A program made the position numbers and the translations under genes. Under the pieces are notes generated by a model that made no database searches, had not been told where the DNA came from, and saw only the letters and a list, made by a program, of their open reading frames with translations. This document shows positions 1 through 52,677 of a DNA stretch of 64,000 bases, piece by piece. Origin of the DNA: Deltaproteobacteria bacterium (GTDB lineage Bacteria > Myxococcota_A > UBA9160 > UBA4427); NCBI GenBank assembly GCA_002691205.1, contig NZHD01000094.1, forward strand, positions 44-64,043. Reading direction: 5' to 3'. How positions within the stretch are numbered: the first letter of the stretch is position 1; each line of letters begins with the position of its first letter.

Positions 1-47
1 AAATCGCTCAGCCCGGCTCTTGGTGGACGGGGGCCCAGCGAGTCGAA

Positions 48-1013
48 ATGGCGCGCTTGTGCAGACAGGCACGAAGTCAAAGAAACGACCCTCCTTGGTT
101 AAGGGCTCAGTCTTCGGAGGCCGGTTCGGTTTTGCCGGATCAAGTAGTAGAAATCGTTCGAAGAGTCTCGGTCGATATGCATTCTATTGATCAGGTTTGG
201 GCCAAAGAATGCATCGAGAACTTGGGCGATGCGGCCTATGTTGAGATTTGTGCCGTTACGGTCTGCATTACGGCTGTTGATTCTTTTGCGGAAGCACTTG
301 GCGTTCCGATGGAAGAACTCCCGAGTCCATTACCCGGAGAACCTAACCTTTTTCGCCCTGAAGGGACCTCTGACGTGGGCGCCTTCGTGCCCCTGCTCGA
401 CCCTTTTGCAGGGCCTAATGTCTCTCGTGCGCTAAGCCTGAGGCCCGACGACAATATGATGTTTCATGCTTTGGTGGGCTCCATGTATGCGCTGAGTGAT
501 TTTCAGGACTTGGTCTGGGAAGATCGTCCGTTGAGTCGCCCTCAAGTCGAACTGGTCGCGGCACGCGTTTCCTCCATCAACGAATGTTTTTACTGAACCA
601 CCGCCCACGTGGCTCTGCTCCGTGTGAGCAGTCATGCAATTGGAGACGAGGCAGACTTGACCGGAGCGGTGGGAGAGGGAGATGGAGGCGTTCCGCAGGG
701 CGCCGAGTTGATTCGTTTTGCAGAATGCGCCACGCGGGGAAACGAGGATTTATCTGAAGCGCGGAAGGCTCTGCAAGCAGCGGTGGGGCTCGAGGCCTTT
801 GTTCTCGCCGCGTGCACTGTTGGGATTTTTAATGGGCTAGTGCGCACAGCCGACAGCATCGGAATACCGGTGGATCGCGGCATGGTGGGACGAACTGCAG
901 ATTTCAGACAGGACCTCGGCCTCAACCATTTTTCAGGTTCAAGAAACACCGAATTATCCAACGAAGCTACAGATACGGGACCGACGGCGATTCCAGACCT
1001 TTTTGGAAATTGA
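48..1013 (+). CDS. AhpD/carboxymuconolactone-decarboxylase (CMD) family protein, predicted selenoprotein (CxxU). The in-frame TGA at 594-596 is read as selenocysteine. Possibly 5'-partial.
   Basis: Track ORFs 48..596 and 609..1013 share one frame and are separated only by TGA plus 4 sense codons. The TGA occupies the second Cys position of the CMD signature E-x11-C-x2-C-x3-H (E-LVAARVSSINE-C-FY-[TGA]-TTA-H). CMD-like helical sequence continues downstream. The frame is also open from nt 3 to 47, so the start may lie upstream of the window. Confidence 0.7.
608..636 (+). promoter_or_regulatory. Candidate bacterial SECIS-like hairpin downstream of the UGA at 594
   Basis: Upper stem CTGCTC (615-620) pairs with GAGCAG (626-631) around a 5-nt loop CGUGU. 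Lower stem 608-611 pairs with 633-636 (one G-U pair) across a small internal loop. The hairpin base starts 11 nt after the UGA. Confidence 0.5.
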
Positions 1014-1875: not shown

Positions 1876-2898
1876 TTAAGTGGTTTGCGCCGCCGGGAAA
1901 TGAATATATTCGTCAACAATGAGTTCTGCGAGATTTCGGTTGTCAGGCCGTTGTTTTTCCAATCGGCCTCGTTTTTCAAGGTCGCCACAGAGGGTATCCA
2001 GTACCGCTTCTAGGCCAAGGTCCTCTTTATGGGTTCGCCAACGTTTTCGCTCTTCTTCATCGTTGAAGCAATATGCTTTCCACGAGATCGAGAAGCGCAT
2101 CTCACTCCAGGAGTATCGCGCAATCTCTTCCTTTCCGGACCGGACCGCCCATTGCCCTTCGCCGAGGGGGTGGACCCGCATGCCTGGCCGAAAAGGAGGC
2201 ATAGAAGAAAGTTGTTCCTGGACGCGGTCGACCCCATGAAAGACGCTGTCTGTATCGGTGATCACCGCGGTATTGAAGCGCACCGAATGTGCCCGAGCGG
2301 GCGCATCGGCTCCGTCTGGATAAAAAGCGAATTCACCGCCTTCGGTATCTTGATACCAAGACACTGCGGTGGCGATGGGCATTCTAAATTCGTCAAATAG
2401 GCCCGAATGGTGCATGGCGACAAGAAGCCATTGCGGACATGTCTTTCGACTCATTCCTCGGAACTCGGGGACATCCGTGTGAACAGCCAGTTCTTGTCCA
2501 GGTAACAAGAGATTGGCGTAGACGATGGCCGGTTCGATGACCGGTCGGCCGAAGATTTTCCGGGCCGCATCAATCAAGGCTTCGCTTTTATAGAGAGCCT
2601 CGATGCCAGGCGCCGCAATCTCTTCTCCGTATGCGTAAGTCTCTCTGAAGTAGTTTGTTCGTGCGGCGAGAGTCTTTACGTCATCCTGACTACGACCGAA
2701 GCGCCCTCCGGTTCGGACGAAATTGAAAGCAGCATCAAAGCGCTGAGGAAGCCCCTCTCCGATGCCTTCGTTCAAAGCCTCCTCTGAGTAGAGACCATAG
2801 CTGCCAAATTCTTCACAGAGTTGAACGAGTTGTTGGGCTGCATCGTTCGGAAGAAAGGGGTCGAGTTCCGTATAGGTATTGTAGAAGTGAGATTGCAT
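1876..2898 (-). CDS. Uncharacterised protein, possibly a cupin/2OG-Fe(II)-oxygenase-like fold (HxD...H)
   Basis: Long ORF with coherent coding. Motifs AVHTDVPEF and SVFHGVD resemble a His-x-Asp...His facial triad. The ATG at 2898 is preferred over the TTG at 2925. No family was recognised with certainty. Confidence 0.55.
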   Translation of the reverse strand: MQSHFYNTYTELDPFLPNDAAQQLVQLCEEFGSYGLYSEEALNEGIGEGLPQRFDAAFNFVRTGGRFGRSQDDVKTLAARTNYFRETYAYGEEIAAPGIEALYKSEALIDAARKIFGRPVIEPAIVYANLLLPGQELAVHTDVPEFRGMSRKTCPQWLLVAMHHSGLFDEFRMPIATAVSWYQDTEGGEFAFYPDGADAPARAHSVRFNTAVITDTDSVFHGVDRVQEQLSSMPPFRPGMRVHPLGEGQWAVRSGKEEIARYSWSEMRFSISWKAYCFNDEEERKRWRTHKEDLGLEAVLDTLCGDLEKRGRLEKQRPDNRNLAELIVDEYIHFPAAQTT

Positions 2899-3008
2899 GG
2901 CTAAATGGGAGTTTCCCCGGGGCAAGTTTGAGGTTTTAGAGACCTTCGTATGATAGCGGAGAGTTTTATTTCCTGAAGGCAGACGCAGAAAGCGCTATCC
3001 ATCATTTT

Positions 3009-37506: not shown

Positions 37507-38502
37507 TTAAAGTTCGCCAAGCCTGAGCAGGAGAACCGCAAAAAGCTGGTCTTTGTCTGTCCAGGCCTGTTCTAATTCCCAACCTATGGGCTGTGCCATT
37601 TGAACAAAACCATCGATGGTGAACTTGTGGGAATATTCAGTACAGATACTTTCGTTGGAATCGAATTGAAATTTCTCTTCTTGGATTTGAACGACTTGGT
37701 CCGTCACGCTGACAAGGTGCATTTCAATTCGCGATTTAACCTTGTTGAAGACGGCTCGGTGTATAAAATGATCGATCTTGAAGTCGGCCCCTAACTCAGT
37801 ATTGATTCTTTGGAGTATGTTGAGATTAAATTCTGACGTGACGCCTTCGGCATCGTTATAAGCCGCTTCCAGCGTCTTAATGTCCTTGATGAGATCAATA
37901 CCAATCAGTAACTGGTCTCCGACATTCGCACAGAGCCTCTTCATCCTTGAGAGGAACGCAATTTGGCTTTCGTGCTCAAAATTTCCAACCGTCGAGCCCG
38001 GGAAGAAGAGGACGCGTTTCGAAGTCGTATCGATGTCGTCGGGCAGGGAAACTTCTTCGTTCATGTCGGCACAAATGGGCCATACCTCAATGTGAGGGAA
38101 CCTACCAGCAATGCGTTCGGAGGCTTCCATGAGGTGTTCCCGTGAAATATCGATGGGGACATATCTCTGAACTTCGTCGATCTTCTGCAGAAGATTTTCG
38201 GTTTTGGAGCTACTTCCACTCCCTAATTCGATGAGTGTGATTTTGGGCCCGACCTTGTCCGAAATTTCTCGGGCAGATTGGTCGAGAATGCTGATCTCGG
38301 TTCGAGTGGGGTAGTACTCCGCCAGTTCGCAGATTTTATCAAAGAGCTGAGAGCCCTTTTGATCGTAGAAGTATTTGCATGGGAGTGTCTTTTGGGGAGC
38401 GGTCAACCCGGTGAGCACTTCCGACAGGAGGTCGCCGGCGGGCGGATGGAGGTCATGAAGCGGCCGAGTCAGGCCTGTTGTTTTCTTTGAATTAGATTCC
38501 AA
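37507..38502 (-). CDS. egtD: L-histidine N-alpha-methyltransferase (ergothioneine biosynthesis)
   Basis: KYFYDQKGSQLFDKICELAEYYPTRTE and IELGSGSS motifs typical of EgtD. TTG start 6 nt after the egtB stop. Confidence 0.9.
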   Translation of the reverse strand: MESNSKKTTGLTRPLHDLHPPAGDLLSEVLTGLTAPQKTLPCKYFYDQKGSQLFDKICELAEYYPTRTEISILDQSAREISDKVGPKITLIELGSGSSSKTENLLQKIDEVQRYVPIDISREHLMEASERIAGRFPHIEVWPICADMNEEVSLPDDIDTTSKRVLFFPGSTVGNFEHESQIAFLSRMKRLCANVGDQLLIGIDLIKDIKTLEAAYNDAEGVTSEFNLNILQRINTELGADFKIDHFIHRAVFNKVKSRIEMHLVSVTDQVVQIQEEKFQFDSNESICTEYSHKFTIDGFVQMAQPIGWELEQAWTDKDQLFAVLLLRLGEL

Positions 38503-38508
38503 TTGAGT

Positions 38509-39774
38509 TTACCTTGCGAGGCGAATTCCGGTGAATTGCCAGCGATCGGGTGGATAGAAGAAGTTTCTGTATGTACTGCGAATATGTGATGCTGATGTCG
38601 CGCAGGAGCCGCCCCGTAGGACAAATTGTTCGCACATGAATTTTCCGTTGTACTCGCCGAGTGCTCCCTCTTCGGGCCGATAGCCTGGATAGGGTGCGTA
38701 GCTGCTGCTGGTCCATTCCCAGAGATCGCCAAAACATTGGCGAATCACTTGGGGAGAACCTTCATCATTTGCCGTTTGTGGATGGAATCGCCGCGTCTCG
38801 ACAAAGTTCCCCTTGAGGGTCGCGTCTCGACACGATATTTCCCATTCGGCCTCTGTCGGTAAGCGATGACCGGCCCATCTTGCGAAGGCTTCGGCTTCAA
38901 AGAAGCTGACGTGACTGACGGGTTCGGAGAGACAAAGCTCTCGACGGCCGGCGAGTGTAAATTCCTGAAACCCATTGGAGGTGAGGCTCCAGTAAAGAGG
39001 AAATTCCCACTTCTCGCTTTGGATGGTCGCCCAGCCTTTATCGAGCCAGAGCGCAGCAGTCTTGTAGCCCCCGTCTTCAATAAATTCCAGATATTCTCGA
39101 TTGGTAATTAATCGATCAGCTATCGAAAAGGGTTCGCAGAAGACGCGATGCCGAGGAGTCTCGTTGTCGAAGCAGAAAGCCTCTCCAGAGCTTCCTATTT
39201 CATGGAGTCCGTGAGAGGGAGTGATCCAGTTAAGACTTTTCTCTATATGGCCCTGGGGCAAGGGAAGGCTTTCCCGATATGCGGGGGCTAGAATCGTTTT
39301 AGAAAAGAGATGCTTGATGTCCGTTAACAGTAATTCTTGATGTTGCTGCTCATGGTTGAGCCCGATTTCAACAATTCTGAGTATTTCGGATCGTCTAGGG
39401 TGCTCTTCTTGTTCAAGCAGCTCGAGGATGCTCTGGTCGATGGCCTTCCGATATTCAAGCACCTCTTGCGCGCTCGGTCGAGAAAGAAGGCCGCGCTCCT
39501 CTCGAGGGTGCCGGTCGCCTTGGCCGTTGTAGTAAGAGTTAAAAAGAAAGCCGAACTCGGGGTGATAGGGCTGATATTGGTCGTCAAAAGGAGATAGGAC
39601 AAAGGCTTCGAAGAACCAAGTGGTATGCGCGAGATGCCATTTAGCTGGACTGGCATCAGGCATAGACTGCGAAGCCATGTCTTCATGTGTAAGTGATTGG
39701 CAGAGATCGTGGCTGAGCCCTCGTGTCTCGATGAACCCTTCTCTACAGGGAGCTGGACATGGACGGAGATCCAT
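38509..39774 (-). CDS. egtB: Hercynine/ergothioneine sulfoxide synthase (DinB-like plus FGE-sulfatase domains)
   Basis: SMPDASPAKWHLAHTTWFFE, NHEQQHQELLLTD and a C-terminal GGSCATSASHIRSTYRNFF...GIRLAR. The ATG at 39774 is preferred. The track ORF extends to a TTG at 39864. Confidence 0.9.
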   Translation of the reverse strand: MDLRPCPAPCREGFIETRGLSHDLCQSLTHEDMASQSMPDASPAKWHLAHTTWFFEAFVLSPFDDQYQPYHPEFGFLFNSYYNGQGDRHPREERGLLSRPSAQEVLEYRKAIDQSILELLEQEEHPRRSEILRIVEIGLNHEQQHQELLLTDIKHLFSKTILAPAYRESLPLPQGHIEKSLNWITPSHGLHEIGSSGEAFCFDNETPRHRVFCEPFSIADRLITNREYLEFIEDGGYKTAALWLDKGWATIQSEKWEFPLYWSLTSNGFQEFTLAGRRELCLSEPVSHVSFFEAEAFARWAGHRLPTEAEWEISCRDATLKGNFVETRRFHPQTANDEGSPQVIRQCFGDLWEWTSSSYAPYPGYRPEEGALGEYNGKFMCEQFVLRGGSCATSASHIRSTYRNFFYPPDRWQFTGIRLAR

Positions 39775-40224
39775 ATGCAGCTCTTTTGTATGAAAGTCTT
39801 CTTTGGGCTGAGCGGTACTCACATTTTCTCCCGTTGGAAGCCAGAGTTTAGGCGAGCCAGGCAAGAGTGGAAACGAATCTTTGCCTTTGAGGGTCTAACG
39901 GTCTGTTTTATGGAAGGTTCATATGGATATTCAGAAGGTGGGCGTGTGAGCTGGAGCACAGCGGCTCAAGGAGAAGATATGGCGATTCGGACTGCCTCGA
40001 TGGTCTCTCTGTCCGGTTCCGTGGCCATTCAGTCCATCGCCGAATCTATATGAGCAGGTGTTTACCCTTTAAGGGCTAACTCGAAGTCTTTGACAGGCTC
40101 TCTTCCTGGGCGAGGCCAGTTTTTGGCCAAATTGAGAGGGCGTTTCTTCAAGAAGCCTCAGATGCCCCCGCTCAGGGCTCCTTCTAGAAGTGGTCAGGGT
40201 CTCGGAGAGGGCCGGACGTGGTTT

Positions 40225-47579: not shown

Positions 47580-50500
47580 TTAAGGAAGAGAGGCTTGACC
47601 GTCAGTGGGAAGGTCGTCTTGTGTTTTTTTACGACGTATCATGTCTGTGAAATCCTTTAGAATCAAGTAACCACAAGGGACAAGGAAGAGCGTCACTGCA
47701 GACGCACAGAGGACTCCATAGGCGAGAGAGATTGCCATGGGGACCAAGGGTTTCGCTGAGATGGCTGGCTCAAACATCAGTGGGATGAGGCCTATAAAAG
47801 TTGTCATGGATGTTAGAAGGATCGGTCGGAATCGGTCCACGGCAGCTTGTCGAATAGCCTTTTCGATAGGCAGGCCACCGTCCGTGAGCGAGTTGATTTT
47901 GTGCACGAGAACCAACGAAGCATTTACGACAACCCCCGAAAGGGCCACGATTCCGAGCACGGAGAAGAAGACTAAGTCCCACCCCATAATTAGGTGCCCC
48001 AAGATCGCTCCAACCGCTCCAAAAGGAATCACGGCCATAATGATGAAAGGTTGGACATATGATTTCAATGGAATCGCGAGCAGAGCGTAAATCATCAGCA
48101 TCGTGAGTGAGAAACCGAGGATGAGTCCATCACGTGCTTCTGCGACGTCACGCTGTTCTCCTCCGAGCTTATATTCCACACCTTTAAATGGGGCAAGAAT
48201 TTCGTCGATGTCGACTTTGACATCTTCGAGAATACTCTCAGGGGTGGTCAATTGACGGTCCACATCGCCTGATACCTTCACAATTTTTCGACGATCACTG
48301 CGACGGATGGTTGCGAAGCCCCTTCCGAGATCGGCTTCGGCGACAGCGGAAAAAGGCAATTCGGTTCCCGCAGAGGTCCGGATATGCATATCTTCCAGAG
48401 AACCGAGAGAAGTTCGCTCATTCTTGGGATACCGCAGCATGACCTTCAGGTCATCGCGTCCACGTTGTACTCTTTGGACTTCTTCGCCATAGAAGGACTG
48501 TCTTACTTGTCGTGCCAGCTCTGCTTGGGTGATTCCAAGAGGTCTTGCCTCTGGTCGTAAGGAAAGCCTCAGCTCTTGCTTTCCAGCCCTGAAACTGTCG
48601 GAGACATCGCTCACTCCTTCGTAGGATGACAGACGCTTTTTGAGCACCTCGGAAGCTGCCTTAAGAGTCTCAATGTCGCCTCCGCTGAGTTCGATGCTCA
48701 TGGCCTCGCCCGCACTGAAGGCTTCGCCGATGAATTTGAGTTCAACCGCTCCGGGAATTGGCCCGACACGTTTTCGCCACATATCTGAGATTTCAAAAGT
48801 TTGAATGGATCGCTCGGAGGCTGGGTTGAGCTCGATGATGACTTCTCCGAGATGTGTACCGCCGGAGGTGACACTCATGTCTGGAGGACCATCCTTGGCG
48901 AACTGTTTGCCGATGGAAGACATCGTGTATAGGAGTTCCGCACCGGAGTTTGTCTCTTCTTTGAGGTACCGGTTCATCTCCACTGCAGCGCTTCGGATAT
49001 TATTGAGAGCAGACTCAGTTTCTTCGATTGGAATTCCGCGAGGCATCGTGAGCGAGGCGTATACGACGTTTCCTTCGATGGCCGGAAAAAATTGGTACCT
49101 GAGACGACCACTTGCGAGAATGGCAAGAGTGACGATGACAATTCCGACCGCTATGGCTGCCGTGGCGTATCTCCATTCCAGAGCGCGCAGAAGACCTTTC
49201 CCATACTTCACACCTAAATTTTCGAATCCAGTCGACATTTTGGATTGGAATCTTAACCAGAGTCCCGATCGAGAATCATCCTTTTCAGTCGGGGGCGTAA
49301 TCTTTCGATGAGCGAGATGCCCTGGAAGAATCCACTGGGATTCTATGAGAGAAAAAATCAGACAGAGGATGGCGACGTATCCGATGGTCCCGAAGAAGGC
49401 TCCCATTCGTCCGGGTATGATGGCGAGGGGAATAAAAGCCGCGACGGAGGTGAGAACGCCAAAGGTGACCGGAATATAAACATCTTGGGTTCCTAGAATG
49501 GCAGCTTTGATCTGGTCTCCGGTTTCTTTTTCACGTGTGTAGACGCTTTCGCCGATCACGATGGCATCGTCGACGAGGATTCCAAGGACGAGAATGAAGG
49601 CCATCACGCTTAGCGTACTGATTGTGAGGTCGAACCCTGGAAAGCACATGACGGCGCCCAGCAGCGAAATGGGGACCCCCGCGGCAACCCACATGGCGAG
49701 TCGGAATTTGAGAAAGGTTGCGAGGATGAGAACGACTAGAAAAAGTCCGCCCAGTGCATTTGAGCGCAAGGCATCGAGTCTGATTCGAAGGTCTTCTGCG
49801 GCATCAGCCGAAGTTGCTATAACGACCGCGTCAGGCATTCGAGATCGAAAAGAGGCAATCCAAGGCCTAATCGCGTTCGCGATGTCCAGTATGTCCTCTT
49901 CGCCGACACGTTCGACTTGAAGAACAACGGCTTTGGACCCATTATAGCTGGCCTGAATATCAGATTCTTCGAAGCCATCATTGATAAGGGCAATGTCGCC
50001 TAGCCGAACGTTGGTTCCGTCAGGGTGAGAGATAATGATGATGTCTTCAAAGTCCGCGTCTGTGTAGGCCTGACCGACTGATCGCAGGAGAACTTCACCG
50101 CCTTGAGTTTTTACAGATCCGCCGGGCAAATCTAAGGATGAATTTCGAACGATGTTTGCTATCTCAGAGAGGCTAATTTGATGCCTTCGCAAAGTTTCTT
50201 CAGAAACTTCAATGGAAATTTCATACTCACGATCGTATTCAAGGGCGACTTGAGAAATTTCAGGAAGAAGCACGAGTTCGTTTCGGGCCTTCTCTCCGAT
50301 GGCCTTTAGACTCTGCTCGTCGAGATCTCCAGTGATAATGATTCGCATCACGGGTTGTCGCATAAGGACTTTTGCTATGACCGGCTTTTCGGCTTCGTCG
50401 GGAAAGGTGTCGATGGCGTCTACACGGTTTTGAATTTCGTTGAGTGCCTCATCCACTTCGGAGCCTTGAACCATGATCACGCTGACAATGCAGGCCCCTT

Positions 50501-50759
50501 CAACCGCCATAGAAGAGAGTTCATCGATATCGACGACACTTTCAATCTCTTCTTCGATTCGAATACAGACGGATTCTTCGTTCTCTTCGGGACTTGAGCC
50601 CGGGTACTCAACGCTGACGCGGATGACATCTGTGTCTACGGAAGGGAACTCCTCCTGTCGTAATATTGAAAGCGATGCGAGACCGCCTACGATGAGGAAA
50701 GCCATGAGCAGATTTGAAGCGACGGGATTGCGAACAAACCATTCTATAATTCGGCTCAC
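47580..50759 (-). CDS. RND efflux transporter, inner-membrane permease (AcrB/HAE family)
   Basis: 1059 aa with the typical 12-TM and two large periplasmic loop organisation. N-terminal IIEWFVRNPVASNLLM. Confidence 0.95.
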   Translation of the reverse strand: MSRIIEWFVRNPVASNLLMAFLIVGGLASLSILRQEEFPSVDTDVIRVSVEYPGSSPEENEESVCIRIEEEIESVVDIDELSSMAVEGACIVSVIMVQGSEVDEALNEIQNRVDAIDTFPDEAEKPVIAKVLMRQPVMRIIITGDLDEQSLKAIGEKARNELVLLPEISQVALEYDREYEISIEVSEETLRRHQISLSEIANIVRNSSLDLPGGSVKTQGGEVLLRSVGQAYTDADFEDIIIISHPDGTNVRLGDIALINDGFEESDIQASYNGSKAVVLQVERVGEEDILDIANAIRPWIASFRSRMPDAVVIATSADAAEDLRIRLDALRSNALGGLFLVVLILATFLKFRLAMWVAAGVPISLLGAVMCFPGFDLTISTLSVMAFILVLGILVDDAIVIGESVYTREKETGDQIKAAILGTQDVYIPVTFGVLTSVAAFIPLAIIPGRMGAFFGTIGYVAILCLIFSLIESQWILPGHLAHRKITPPTEKDDSRSGLWLRFQSKMSTGFENLGVKYGKGLLRALEWRYATAAIAVGIVIVTLAILASGRLRYQFFPAIEGNVVYASLTMPRGIPIEETESALNNIRSAAVEMNRYLKEETNSGAELLYTMSSIGKQFAKDGPPDMSVTSGGTHLGEVIIELNPASERSIQTFEISDMWRKRVGPIPGAVELKFIGEAFSAGEAMSIELSGGDIETLKAASEVLKKRLSSYEGVSDVSDSFRAGKQELRLSLRPEARPLGITQAELARQVRQSFYGEEVQRVQRGRDDLKVMLRYPKNERTSLGSLEDMHIRTSAGTELPFSAVAEADLGRGFATIRRSDRRKIVKVSGDVDRQLTTPESILEDVKVDIDEILAPFKGVEYKLGGEQRDVAEARDGLILGFSLTMLMIYALLAIPLKSYVQPFIIMAVIPFGAVGAILGHLIMGWDLVFFSVLGIVALSGVVVNASLVLVHKINSLTDGGLPIEKAIRQAAVDRFRPILLTSMTTFIGLIPLMFEPAISAKPLVPMAISLAYGVLCASAVTLFLVPCGYLILKDFTDMIRRKKTQDDLPTDGQASLP

Positions 50760-51940
50760 GTTCGACTCTTTTCCGCTTCGCTAATCGGAATTACTTGCAT
50801 GCCGTCGACGGCCCACTGAAGAGAAGAAGTTCCGACTCGCTCTCCGTCCTCTATGGGCACACGTAGAAGGACGTCTTCTTGATCAATTCGTAAAATGTCA
50901 ACATTGCGCAGATGGATCCGGTCTAATTCGTCGACCACAATGATTTGGTTTCCGTCGCGAATGGCCGCGCGGGGCAAGGTCAAGATGTTTTTTGCAAGAG
51001 CGCCTTCGATTTCGGCTTGGACGAATAGGCCCACGGCCAAAGGCGGGGACAGTTCTAGACCGTCTGTGTTTTTTCGCTGAGTTTCGTAAGGGTCCTCTAC
51101 GCGTGCGACGATGTGGAGCATCCTGCTTCTTGAGTCAATCTCGCCTTCTGTCCTTACGATTTCACCTTCCCAGGATTGTTCGCGACCCGCAAAATTGGCT
51201 TTTAGGATCACCTTAGGCCGTGTTTCATTTTCGGCATCGAGACGCTCAAGCTCAATAAAAGCCAATTGTTGATCCGCGACCGGAAGCCGAATCTCTGCAA
51301 AGTCCGTAGAATAGAGGGTGGCGATTGGAGATCCACGCGAGACAAACTGTCCGATGTCGACGTTTTCTTCTCTCACCCGCCCTTTAAAGGGCGCACGCAA
51401 TTCGCATCTCTCTAGATCTCGCTCTGAACGATAGAGCGTGGCCCAGGCCGCCTCGAGAATGGCTGAGGAAACACGAGCCGCTCGCTTGGCGGCACTCAGT
51501 TGCGATGAACTGGTCGCTTTTTCCCGAGCAAGGCCTTCTTGGCGTCTGAGCTCAGAGGCGGCGTGTTCAGATTCTCCCTCGGCCCTGGCGACTTCTGCGC
51601 GAGCTTGCGCGACAGCCGTCTGGTAGTCCCGAGCATCAATTCGGAGGAGGGGTTCACCTGGCTCAAAGAAGCCACCTGAAGCGAGAGCGGGGGAGATCCA
51701 GACGACAGGTCCCGAAACCTCGGGAACCAGTGTGCTTTCGGTTCTGGGTATGACGGTGCCCTGACTTCTGATCTTTAATCGAATGTCTTTGGGCATAGCA
51801 TTGGTCACGCGCAGCGCCGGCAGCTCAGTCGCCGTAGATTTCCGTTCTATCTCGGGAGCTGTGGCCATGACGACAAATGCGGCCAAGCTAGCAACGAGCA
51901 GAACGCCTAAGGGTAGAATGATTTTCTTGCGTTTTATCAA
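50756..51940 (-). CDS. RND efflux periplasmic adaptor (membrane fusion protein, HlyD-like)
   Basis: N-terminal anchor, coiled-coil region and beta-barrel domains. 4-nt overlaps with both neighbours. Confidence 0.9.
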   Translation of the reverse strand: MIKRKKIILPLGVLLVASLAAFVVMATAPEIERKSTATELPALRVTNAMPKDIRLKIRSQGTVIPRTESTLVPEVSGPVVWISPALASGGFFEPGEPLLRIDARDYQTAVAQARAEVARAEGESEHAASELRRQEGLAREKATSSSQLSAAKRAARVSSAILEAAWATLYRSERDLERCELRAPFKGRVREENVDIGQFVSRGSPIATLYSTDFAEIRLPVADQQLAFIELERLDAENETRPKVILKANFAGREQSWEGEIVRTEGEIDSRSRMLHIVARVEDPYETQRKNTDGLELSPPLAVGLFVQAEIEGALAKNILTLPRAAIRDGNQIIVVDELDRIHLRNVDILRIDQEDVLLRVPIEDGERVGTSSLQWAVDGMQVIPISEAEKSRT

Positions 51941-52677
51941 CTTGCTTCTCCGGCGCGTTTTGTTTCCTGTTTTTCTTTGATCTGGTTGTGCAGGATGAGA
52001 ATGGCTTTGGTCCGAACTTGAGTGGAGAGGTCGTTGAGGAGTTCGGCGACGGCCGGTCCATCTCGGTCTTTGAGAGCTTTCTTCACCGCAGAGACTCCAG
52101 AGATCCTCATCTCGTTCGAGGCACTCAAAAGCTCGGCGTGCCCCTCGATCTGTGTGATGAACTGCGTTCGAAGCGCCCGATGAGCCAGCTCGAGAACGAG
52201 GTTTTGGCTGGCTTCGACGAGCGTGTCGATGAGTCGAGTCATGATCTCATATTCCTCGCTGGCTCCGAGATTCGGTGCGGCGAGTTCGCTCAAGAGTTCA
52301 AGGCAGTGATCGATTTGTTCATCCGTTCCACGTTCTGTGGCGAGCCGGGCCGCTAAAATGCCAAGGCTCGCCGAGACCTCAAAGACCATGCCGACAATCT
52401 CTGGGTCGGGCGGACTGGAAAGGGCCATGAGATGCCCGACGATATCTAGACTGGCTTTTTCGAGGGGACAGACTCGAACTCCGCCAGGCTGGATGCTGGC
52501 CAATCCGAGTTGTTCAACCTTCTTCAAGCCTTCACGCACAGCGCCTCGCTGCACTTCAAATCGTTCGGCGAGCGCACGCTCGGAGGGCAGGCGGTCACCC
52601 GGTTGGTAACGGCCGTTTAAAATGTCGCTTCGAAGATCCCGGGCGATCCGGTCGCTTTGTGAGTCTGGGGGGGGCAT
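51937..52677 (-). CDS. GntR-family (FadR/FCD subfamily) transcriptional regulator
   Basis: N-terminal winged HTH (GDRLPSERALAERFEVQRGAVREGLKKVEQLGL) plus an all-helical FCD-like C-terminal domain. Confidence 0.9.
   Translation of the reverse strand: MPPPDSQSDRIARDLRSDILNGRYQPGDRLPSERALAERFEVQRGAVREGLKKVEQLGLASIQPGGVRVCPLEKASLDIVGHLMALSSPPDPEIVGMVFEVSASLGILAARLATERGTDEQIDHCLELLSELAAPNLGASEEYEIMTRLIDTLVEASQNLVLELAHRALRTQFITQIEGHAELLSASNEMRISGVSAVKKALKDRDGPAVAELLNDLSTQVRTKAILILHNQIKEKQETKRAGEAS

Follow-up and report, generated by a model that had tools for sequence, protein, structure and literature searches.

The plus strand of the 64,000-nt window (the whole stretch of DNA analysed) is open in frame 3 from window base 3 to a TGA at 1011–1013. 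The sole interruption is a second TGA at 594–596, which lies in the context QVELVAARVSSINECFY*TTAH. The question raised by this locus is whether the internal TGA terminates a short gene or is read as selenocysteine (Sec) within a longer one. A sequence-only reading had proposed the latter, based on a single frame broken only by this codon and on the active-site motif E-x11-C-x2-[TGA]-x3-H; translation reproduced both exactly. The features of the gene are collected in Table 1.

Table 1. Features of the putative selenoprotein gene, in window coordinates.
Feature	Position	Strand	Remarks
N-terminal coding part of the selenoprotein gene	1..593	+	Frame 3 codons from base 3; 5' end cut by the window edge
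Active-site motif E-x11-C-F-Y-U-T-T-A-H	549..608	+	Glu 549–551, Cys 585–587, Sec 594–596, His 606–608
In-frame UGA, predicted Sec codon	594..596	+	TGA in 92/92 copies; Cys in P0202, P0212 and PDB homologues; model name ends CFYUT
C-terminal part (138 codons), remainder of the AhpD/CMD-fold domain spanning the UGA	597..1010	+	Homology, substitution pattern, PDB alignments, NF041238
SECIS hairpin as folded in the window sequence	608..636	+	MFE −10.7 kcal/mol
Conserved SECIS core: upper stem 615–620/626–631 (6 bp) and loop CGUGU 621–625	615..631	+	92-copy comparison
True stop codon (TGA), without a SECIS behind it	1011..1013	+	

Extent of the gene and family membership

The start of the gene had been placed at the ATG at 48, an assignment that had to be abandoned, since the open frame extends leftward as far as the window edge. 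The first 27 codons, which lie outside the window, are supplied by a Tara Oceans contig (L081) that is near-identical (one mismatch over ~790 nt) and shares the TGA. This contig has the real ATG 79 nt before window base 1, preceded by an AAAGGA ribosome-binding site; the ATG at 48 is thus internal, with the gene start upstream of the window. Because this independent assembly also carries the TGA at 594–596, an assembly error can be ruled out. Over its last ~35 nt (L081 990–1023), the Tara contig departs from window ~790–830; the probable cause is strain variation or an artefact at the end of the assembly. The product of this contig, P0001 (224 aa), is 100% identical to the N-terminal part encoded in the window.

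With Cys placed at the stop, the joined product, a query without the first 27 residues, matches the NCBIfam model NF041238 with 296.2 bits (E = 3.7e-88) over model positions 16–356 of 357, against a curated cutoff of 175 bits. It is the sole NCBIfam equivalog model matched by the joined product. Its name, AhpD_rel_CFYUT, itself spells the motif at the stop codon, and the stretch NECFY-TGA-TTAH at 579–608 has the corresponding C-F-Y-U-T pattern. The Pfam CMD domain (PF02627) is also recognized, with 30 bits against a gathering threshold of 23, at residues 164–231 of the 336-aa query, i.e., across the UGA. Both profiles therefore support the earlier assignment to the CMD/AhpD group. The score for the peroxidase-related subfamily TIGR01926 (33 bits) lies below its cutoff of 81.8, indicating that the window protein is related to this subfamily, not a member of it.

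This family is already known. It is the ‘hypothetical protein 1’ of the Sargasso Sea, first reported in 2005 from four sequences in which a CXXU motif is conserved and a SECIS element was predicted (PMC1088965), and it has its own curated NCBI model. The NCBI name ‘(seleno)protein’ is already attached to one member (P0040) among the 120 best homologues. More broadly, AhpD-like CxxU selenoproteins rank with the most abundant selenoprotein families of the sea (PMC2398784), and BSepDB uses them as its worked example (PMC13326102). No biochemical characterisation of any NF041238 member was found in the literature searched.

The in-frame UGA and the sequence beyond it

The best 120 database homologues are all N-terminal fragments of ~224 aa that end in ...[N/S]ECFY and cover one 59% portion of the query, and gene callers stop at the equivalent codon in homologues down to ~50% identity. 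When the C-terminal half alone was compared with 1.8 billion representatives, 585 clusters matched; nearly all of the 150 matches listed are orphan ORFs of 100–150 aa that start just past the UGA. The split annotation anticipated from the sequence alone is thus the prevailing form of this gene in both sets. Two full-length proteins are present among the 150 matches listed, and both contain Cys at the UGA site (NECFYCTNAH in P0202 and NGCFYCTTAH in P0212). Furthermore, the AhpD-like structures 3c1l, 2pfx, 6k40, 2oyo, and 2prr align without a break across the UGA (query residues 190–313), with the motifs SSINHCYYCLTAH (3c1l) and SSINKCFYCLVAH at this site. In 3c1l and 2pfx, as in the two full-length proteins, Cys stands opposite the UGA, which is the pairing that the sequence-only reading had expected. 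These continuous alignments indicate that one fold domain spans the stop.

Relatives are encoded in 501 species genomes, according to a scan with one genome per species. The comparison of gene copies comprised 92 sequences, i.e., the window’s own copy and 91 from 80 fetched loci (Myxococcota, Pseudomonadales/OM182, Dehalococcoidia, Thermoanaerobaculia, Binatia, and others). TGA occupies this codon in all 92, T-x-x-H comes next in all 92, and the frame continues for 120–160 codons in nearly all of them. When the 138 codons past the UGA are compared with those of L001, the closest relative, substitutions are distributed as 31/17/87 over codon positions 1/2/3, and 62 codon changes are synonymous while 39 are non-synonymous. 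This third-position bias and the synonymous excess show that the downstream part is translated and under purifying selection. Indeed, the in-frame conservation in related genomes is what was to be expected if 597–1013 continues the CMD domain, as had been claimed. In one copy (L028, 6665), the frame past the TGA stays open for only 20 codons, though this copy is near-identical to that of L026 around the site; this short frame is probably due to an assembly-error frameshift, or the copy is decaying.

These data bear directly on the possibility that the TGA is a genuine stop, so that the locus would be a pseudogene, or a truncated gene, with an ORF behind it that is unrelated or decaying. The gene callers of every public source split the gene at this point, and no Sec machinery is visible within the 64-kb window. 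Yet the TGA is retained at the equivalent codon of every copy across several phyla, the frame behind it is unbroken and evolves under purifying selection, both the catalytic His and half of the AhpD fold are encoded past it, and full-length homologues have Cys at the site. Termination at this codon, to which we assign next to no probability, thus appears to be effectively refuted by conservation.

SECIS-like hairpin, Sec machinery, and genomic context

The hairpin that had been proposed as a bacterial SECIS element does exist. It begins 11 nt past the UGA, with 24 nt between the UGA and the loop, and its lower stem (608–612/632–636) is split from the upper stem by a 2-nt bulge (613–614). The lower stem is specific to the window sequence and shows no conservation among relatives, so that only the upper part of the proposed element has stood the comparison. 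Bacterial SECIS elements have been described as having a loop of 3–9 nt, an upper stem of 4–16 bp, and a G in the first two loop positions (PMC13188914), with a spacing of 16–37 nt between UGA and loop and an MFE of ≤ −7.5 kcal/mol (PMC13188914 Fig. 2). With a 5-nt loop, a 6-bp stem, G-U at loop positions 2–3, a spacing of 24 nt, and an MFE of −10.7 kcal/mol, the window element falls within all of these limits and agrees in each respect with the bacterial SECIS consensus (bSECISearch; Zhang and Gladyshev 2005, as summarised in PMC13188914). In a crude evaluation, 69 of the 92 sequences did so on every count.

Sixty-three nucleotides from the TGA onward were aligned for the 92 copies, and no gaps were needed. 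Five core pairs (window 616–620/626–630) are formed in register in 96–100% of the sequences. At the closing pair, 82 sequences have C-G and 10 have U-A (perhaps only 2–3 independent events), and in none are the two positions unpaired. Both closing-pair columns are third codon positions, and all changes are synonymous: the Leu codon CTC always pairs with an xxG codon (GCG, GTG, GAG, CGG, and others) and CTT with an xxA codon (GCA, GTA, GAA), while the amino acid at the second closing-pair codon varies freely. Codon choice in the stem is restricted as well, Leu being encoded by CTC or CTT only and Ser by AGC or AGT only. This restriction, together with the covariation, reflects selection on the RNA, not on the protein. 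All 92 sequences have G at the second loop position and G or U next to it; in the window, G622 is followed by U. Single-sequence folding of 594–660 was no better than that of shuffles (z = 0.15), and Rfam gave no family match for the whole window at gathering thresholds or for 500–750 at E ≤ 10; the significance of the hairpin therefore derives from the comparison, not from its energy.

Two paralogous copies, each with the TGA and the hairpin, lie close together in Dehalococcoidia/Chloroflexota and some Pseudomonadales genomes. The second is ~1.1 kb from the first in L055, L057, L058, L059, L065, L068, L069, L073, and L079, and further two-copy loci are L048 (5912/10742) and L050 (9433/10742). 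One of the two Chloroflexota copies has the loop GGUCG and the peptide T-V-S-H-V-x-L-L-G-R-S.

The conserved region behind the UGA also allows a two-polypeptide model to be judged, in which a 224-aa N-terminal chain and a ~134-aa C-terminal chain, the latter initiated at GTG 609, would assemble post-translationally. A GTG or ATG is often found 4–5 codons past the UGA and is used by ORF callers. However, the T-x-x-H between the UGA and this start-like codon is conserved, with an invariant His, although it would be left untranslated on such a model. Moreover, no ribosome-binding site is evident, the region is locked in the hairpin, and the active-site helix would be cut between Cys and His. Separate synthesis of the two halves is thus scarcely credible.

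Within the 64-kb window, no selA, selB, selD, or tRNA-Sec was detected by tRNA search, profile scans, and motif scans. The window contains no tRNA genes. NCBIfam scans covered 28 window ORFs, among them most ORFs of a length fitting SelA or SelD; two of the SelB-sized ORFs were profile-scanned and the rest were covered by motif scan only, and six-frame motif scans of the window gave no selA, selB, or selD. In two related genomes, such genes adjoin the family gene. A tRNA-Sec (UCA) is located immediately upstream of it in a Myxococcota MAG (L009 9783–9881), and tRNA-Sec, selB (TIGR00475, 393 bits vs 242), and selA (TIGR00474, 591 bits vs 268) lie beside it on the opposite strand in a Halieaceae MAG (L044 125–3618). 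Two of the eight tRNAs in ~1.1 Mb of flanks are tRNA-Sec; no tRNA-Sec is present in the 20-kb flanks of the closest syntenic relatives (L001, L003, and L005). The ORFs beside the tRNA-Sec of L009 have no NCBIfam match and are probably spurious frames.

A further explanation is that Trp, Gly, or Cys, and thus a standard amino acid in place of selenocysteine, is inserted at the UGA, through either genome-wide reassignment or near-cognate suppression. Sec insertion at this site is itself a deduction, and the scans of the window detected no Sec machinery, both of which leave some room for such a reading. However, TGA is the commonest ordinary stop in the window, ending 23 of its 50 long ORFs, this gene included; thus, UGA is not reassigned genome-wide. 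In addition, SelB-dependent recoding requires just such a hairpin, located at the canonical distance and with an invariant G in its loop; tRNA-Sec, selA, and selB accompany the gene in relatives; and the site is a redox Cys position. Decoding as a standard amino acid is therefore very improbable. A scan of the window for other genes split by a single TGA returned only adjacent-gene artefacts and antisense frames, and no second selenoprotein candidate.

Collectively, the UGA at 594–596 almost certainly encodes selenocysteine in an AhpD-related active site, and window 1–1013, together with 79 nt off the left edge, is, with a probability of roughly 0.93, a single gene of ~363 codons for an NF041238 selenoprotein. 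The Sec reading restores a complete redox enzyme from a 224-aa “hypothetical protein” and an orphan ORF of ~130 aa, and it would mark this marine Myxococcota-like lineage as a selenium user.

The gene order around this locus matches that of L001 (TMED72) and of the Myxococcota MAGs L003 and L005, and the DNA derives from a Tara Oceans sample. The neighbours comprise a YghX-like hydrolase, a 349-aa protein, a CoA-transferase, a quinone oxidoreductase, an OlsE-like hydroxylase, and a TetR regulator; none of the window neighbours is conserved beyond the L001/L003/L005 lineage. The 349-aa ORF (1876–2925, minus strand), two genes downstream, has 70–74% identity to its counterparts in these three genomes and no NCBIfam match. 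Elsewhere in the window, egtD (L-histidine N-alpha-methyltransferase, 397 bits vs 291) and egtB (570 bits vs 360) are adjacent at 37507–39864 (minus strand) and form an ergothioneine biosynthesis pair. EgtB also scores 344 bits on the model of the selenoneine synthase SenA, below the 420-bit cutoff, which is of some note for an organism that probably uses selenium. At 47580–52677 (minus strand), an apparent RND efflux operon consists of a 1059-aa pump-sized ORF, an adaptor, and a 246-aa ORF; the profile support for this operon reading is that of the membrane-fusion adaptor only (TIGR01730, 137 bits).

Active site and relation to known proteins

The proton-relay signature E-x11-C-x2-C-x3-H is present in the joined product with Sec at the second Cys, and 27 joined sequences show no variation at E210, C222, F223, Y224, C/U225, T226, and H229. 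In Mycobacterium tuberculosis AhpD, the relay residues are Glu118, Cys130, His132, Cys133, and His137; the Glu, Cys, Sec, and His of the window protein correspond to Glu118, Cys130, Cys133, and His137, with the same spacing (PMC3141380). The window protein differs from this AhpD in its very low sequence identity, in having Tyr in place of His132 (as in PA0269) and Sec in place of Cys, and in its domain architecture. Furthermore, no linked ahpC was seen.

The second Cys of M. tuberculosis AhpD (Cys133) is exposed and forms a disulfide with Cys61 of AhpC, whereas Cys130 is partly buried (PMC6626918). By this paradigm, Sec would replace the attacking Cys (Cys133 position), not the resolving Cys, so that the term “resolving”, which the sequence-only reading had used for the second position, is not appropriate. 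As a general rule, Sec takes the nucleophilic position, and its placement at the attacking position fits this rule. The roles of the two Cys residues are not universal, however, since Burkholderia thailandensis AhpD depends more on its first Cys (PMC6626918).

A mechanism can be proposed on this basis. When a ribosome reaches the UGA, the stem-loop at 615–631 would recruit SelB with GTP and Sec-tRNA(Sec); Sec would be inserted instead of termination, and translation would proceed to the ordinary TGA at 1011–1013. The product would consist of an N-terminal helical region of ~140 residues followed by an AhpD/CMD-fold domain and may act as a thiol/selenol oxidoreductase. The Sec residue would either be joined transiently to an oxidised partner, e.g., a peroxiredoxin, through a selenenylsulfide or react directly with peroxide, and the neighbouring Cys (equivalent to Cys130) would resolve the selenenylsulfide bond. 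While the data show the family membership, the Sec/Cys pairing, translation beyond the UGA, and the conservation of the SECIS-like RNA, we infer the actual incorporation of Se, the redox chemistry, and the partner; for the family as a whole, chemistry and partner are suggested by its likeness to AhpD.

The N-terminal ~140 residues are confidently predicted to be helical (pLDDT about 80–95). For window 1–420/P0001 residues 1–126, Pfam gave no match, nor did a Foldseek comparison with the PDB (best E = 1.6), and an hhalign comparison of the N-terminal with the C-terminal region, as a test of internal duplication, gave weak evidence (probability 19%). A longer subfamily of ~380 aa (P0202, residues ~50–60; P0212; L032–L080) contains an extra N-terminal CxxC, e.g., RCPLCIERKAALSP and TCAFCAERKQALTP; the window’s clade is without it and has ARSQRNDPPWLR in its place. 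The extra CxxC may be a second redox or metal site. Crude neighbour clustering of the 80 loci, which was dominated by spurious high-GC ORFs, revealed no conserved ahpC, peroxiredoxin, or other partner gene; the recurring neighbours belong to common families only (enoyl-CoA hydratase, CoA-transferase) and have no fixed position. The unmatched N-terminal fold, the near-fixation of Sec (UGA in 92 of 92 copies; two Cys forms among the 150 representatives listed), and the lack of a conserved partner leave room for a distinct activity. It is nevertheless unlikely, in our estimate, that this family, which occurs in marine Myxococcota, Gammaproteobacteria, and Dehalococcoidia, has a selenium-dependent redox activity distinct from that of an AhpD-type peroxiredoxin reductase.

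As the family, its CxxU motif, and its SECIS element have been on record since 2005, with curation in NCBIfam and BSepDB, the locus adds nothing new to selenoprotein biology. Its practical value lies in annotation, as most public gene calls split the gene; the window gene is a correctly identified member of a known selenoprotein family, not a discovery. Among known systems, the AhpD-like selenoproteins and the TIGR01926 group share with it the AhpD/CMD fold and the near-identical stretch SSIN-x-C-[FY]-Y-C/U-x-T-A-H, with CxxU in the selenoprotein forms (PMC2398784), and the solved Cys forms of this group are 3c1l, 2pfx, 2oyo, 2prr, and 6k40. TIGR01926-type proteins are single-domain proteins of ~180–200 aa, whereas the window protein has an additional N-terminal region of ~140 residues. 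The closest correspondence is with NF041238, the alkylhydroperoxidase-related (seleno)protein model. The C-F-Y-U-T motif, the length of ~360 aa, the position of the SECIS element, and the marine metagenomic habitat are common to both, and there is no difference of substance, the missing 27 codons being due to the window edge only.
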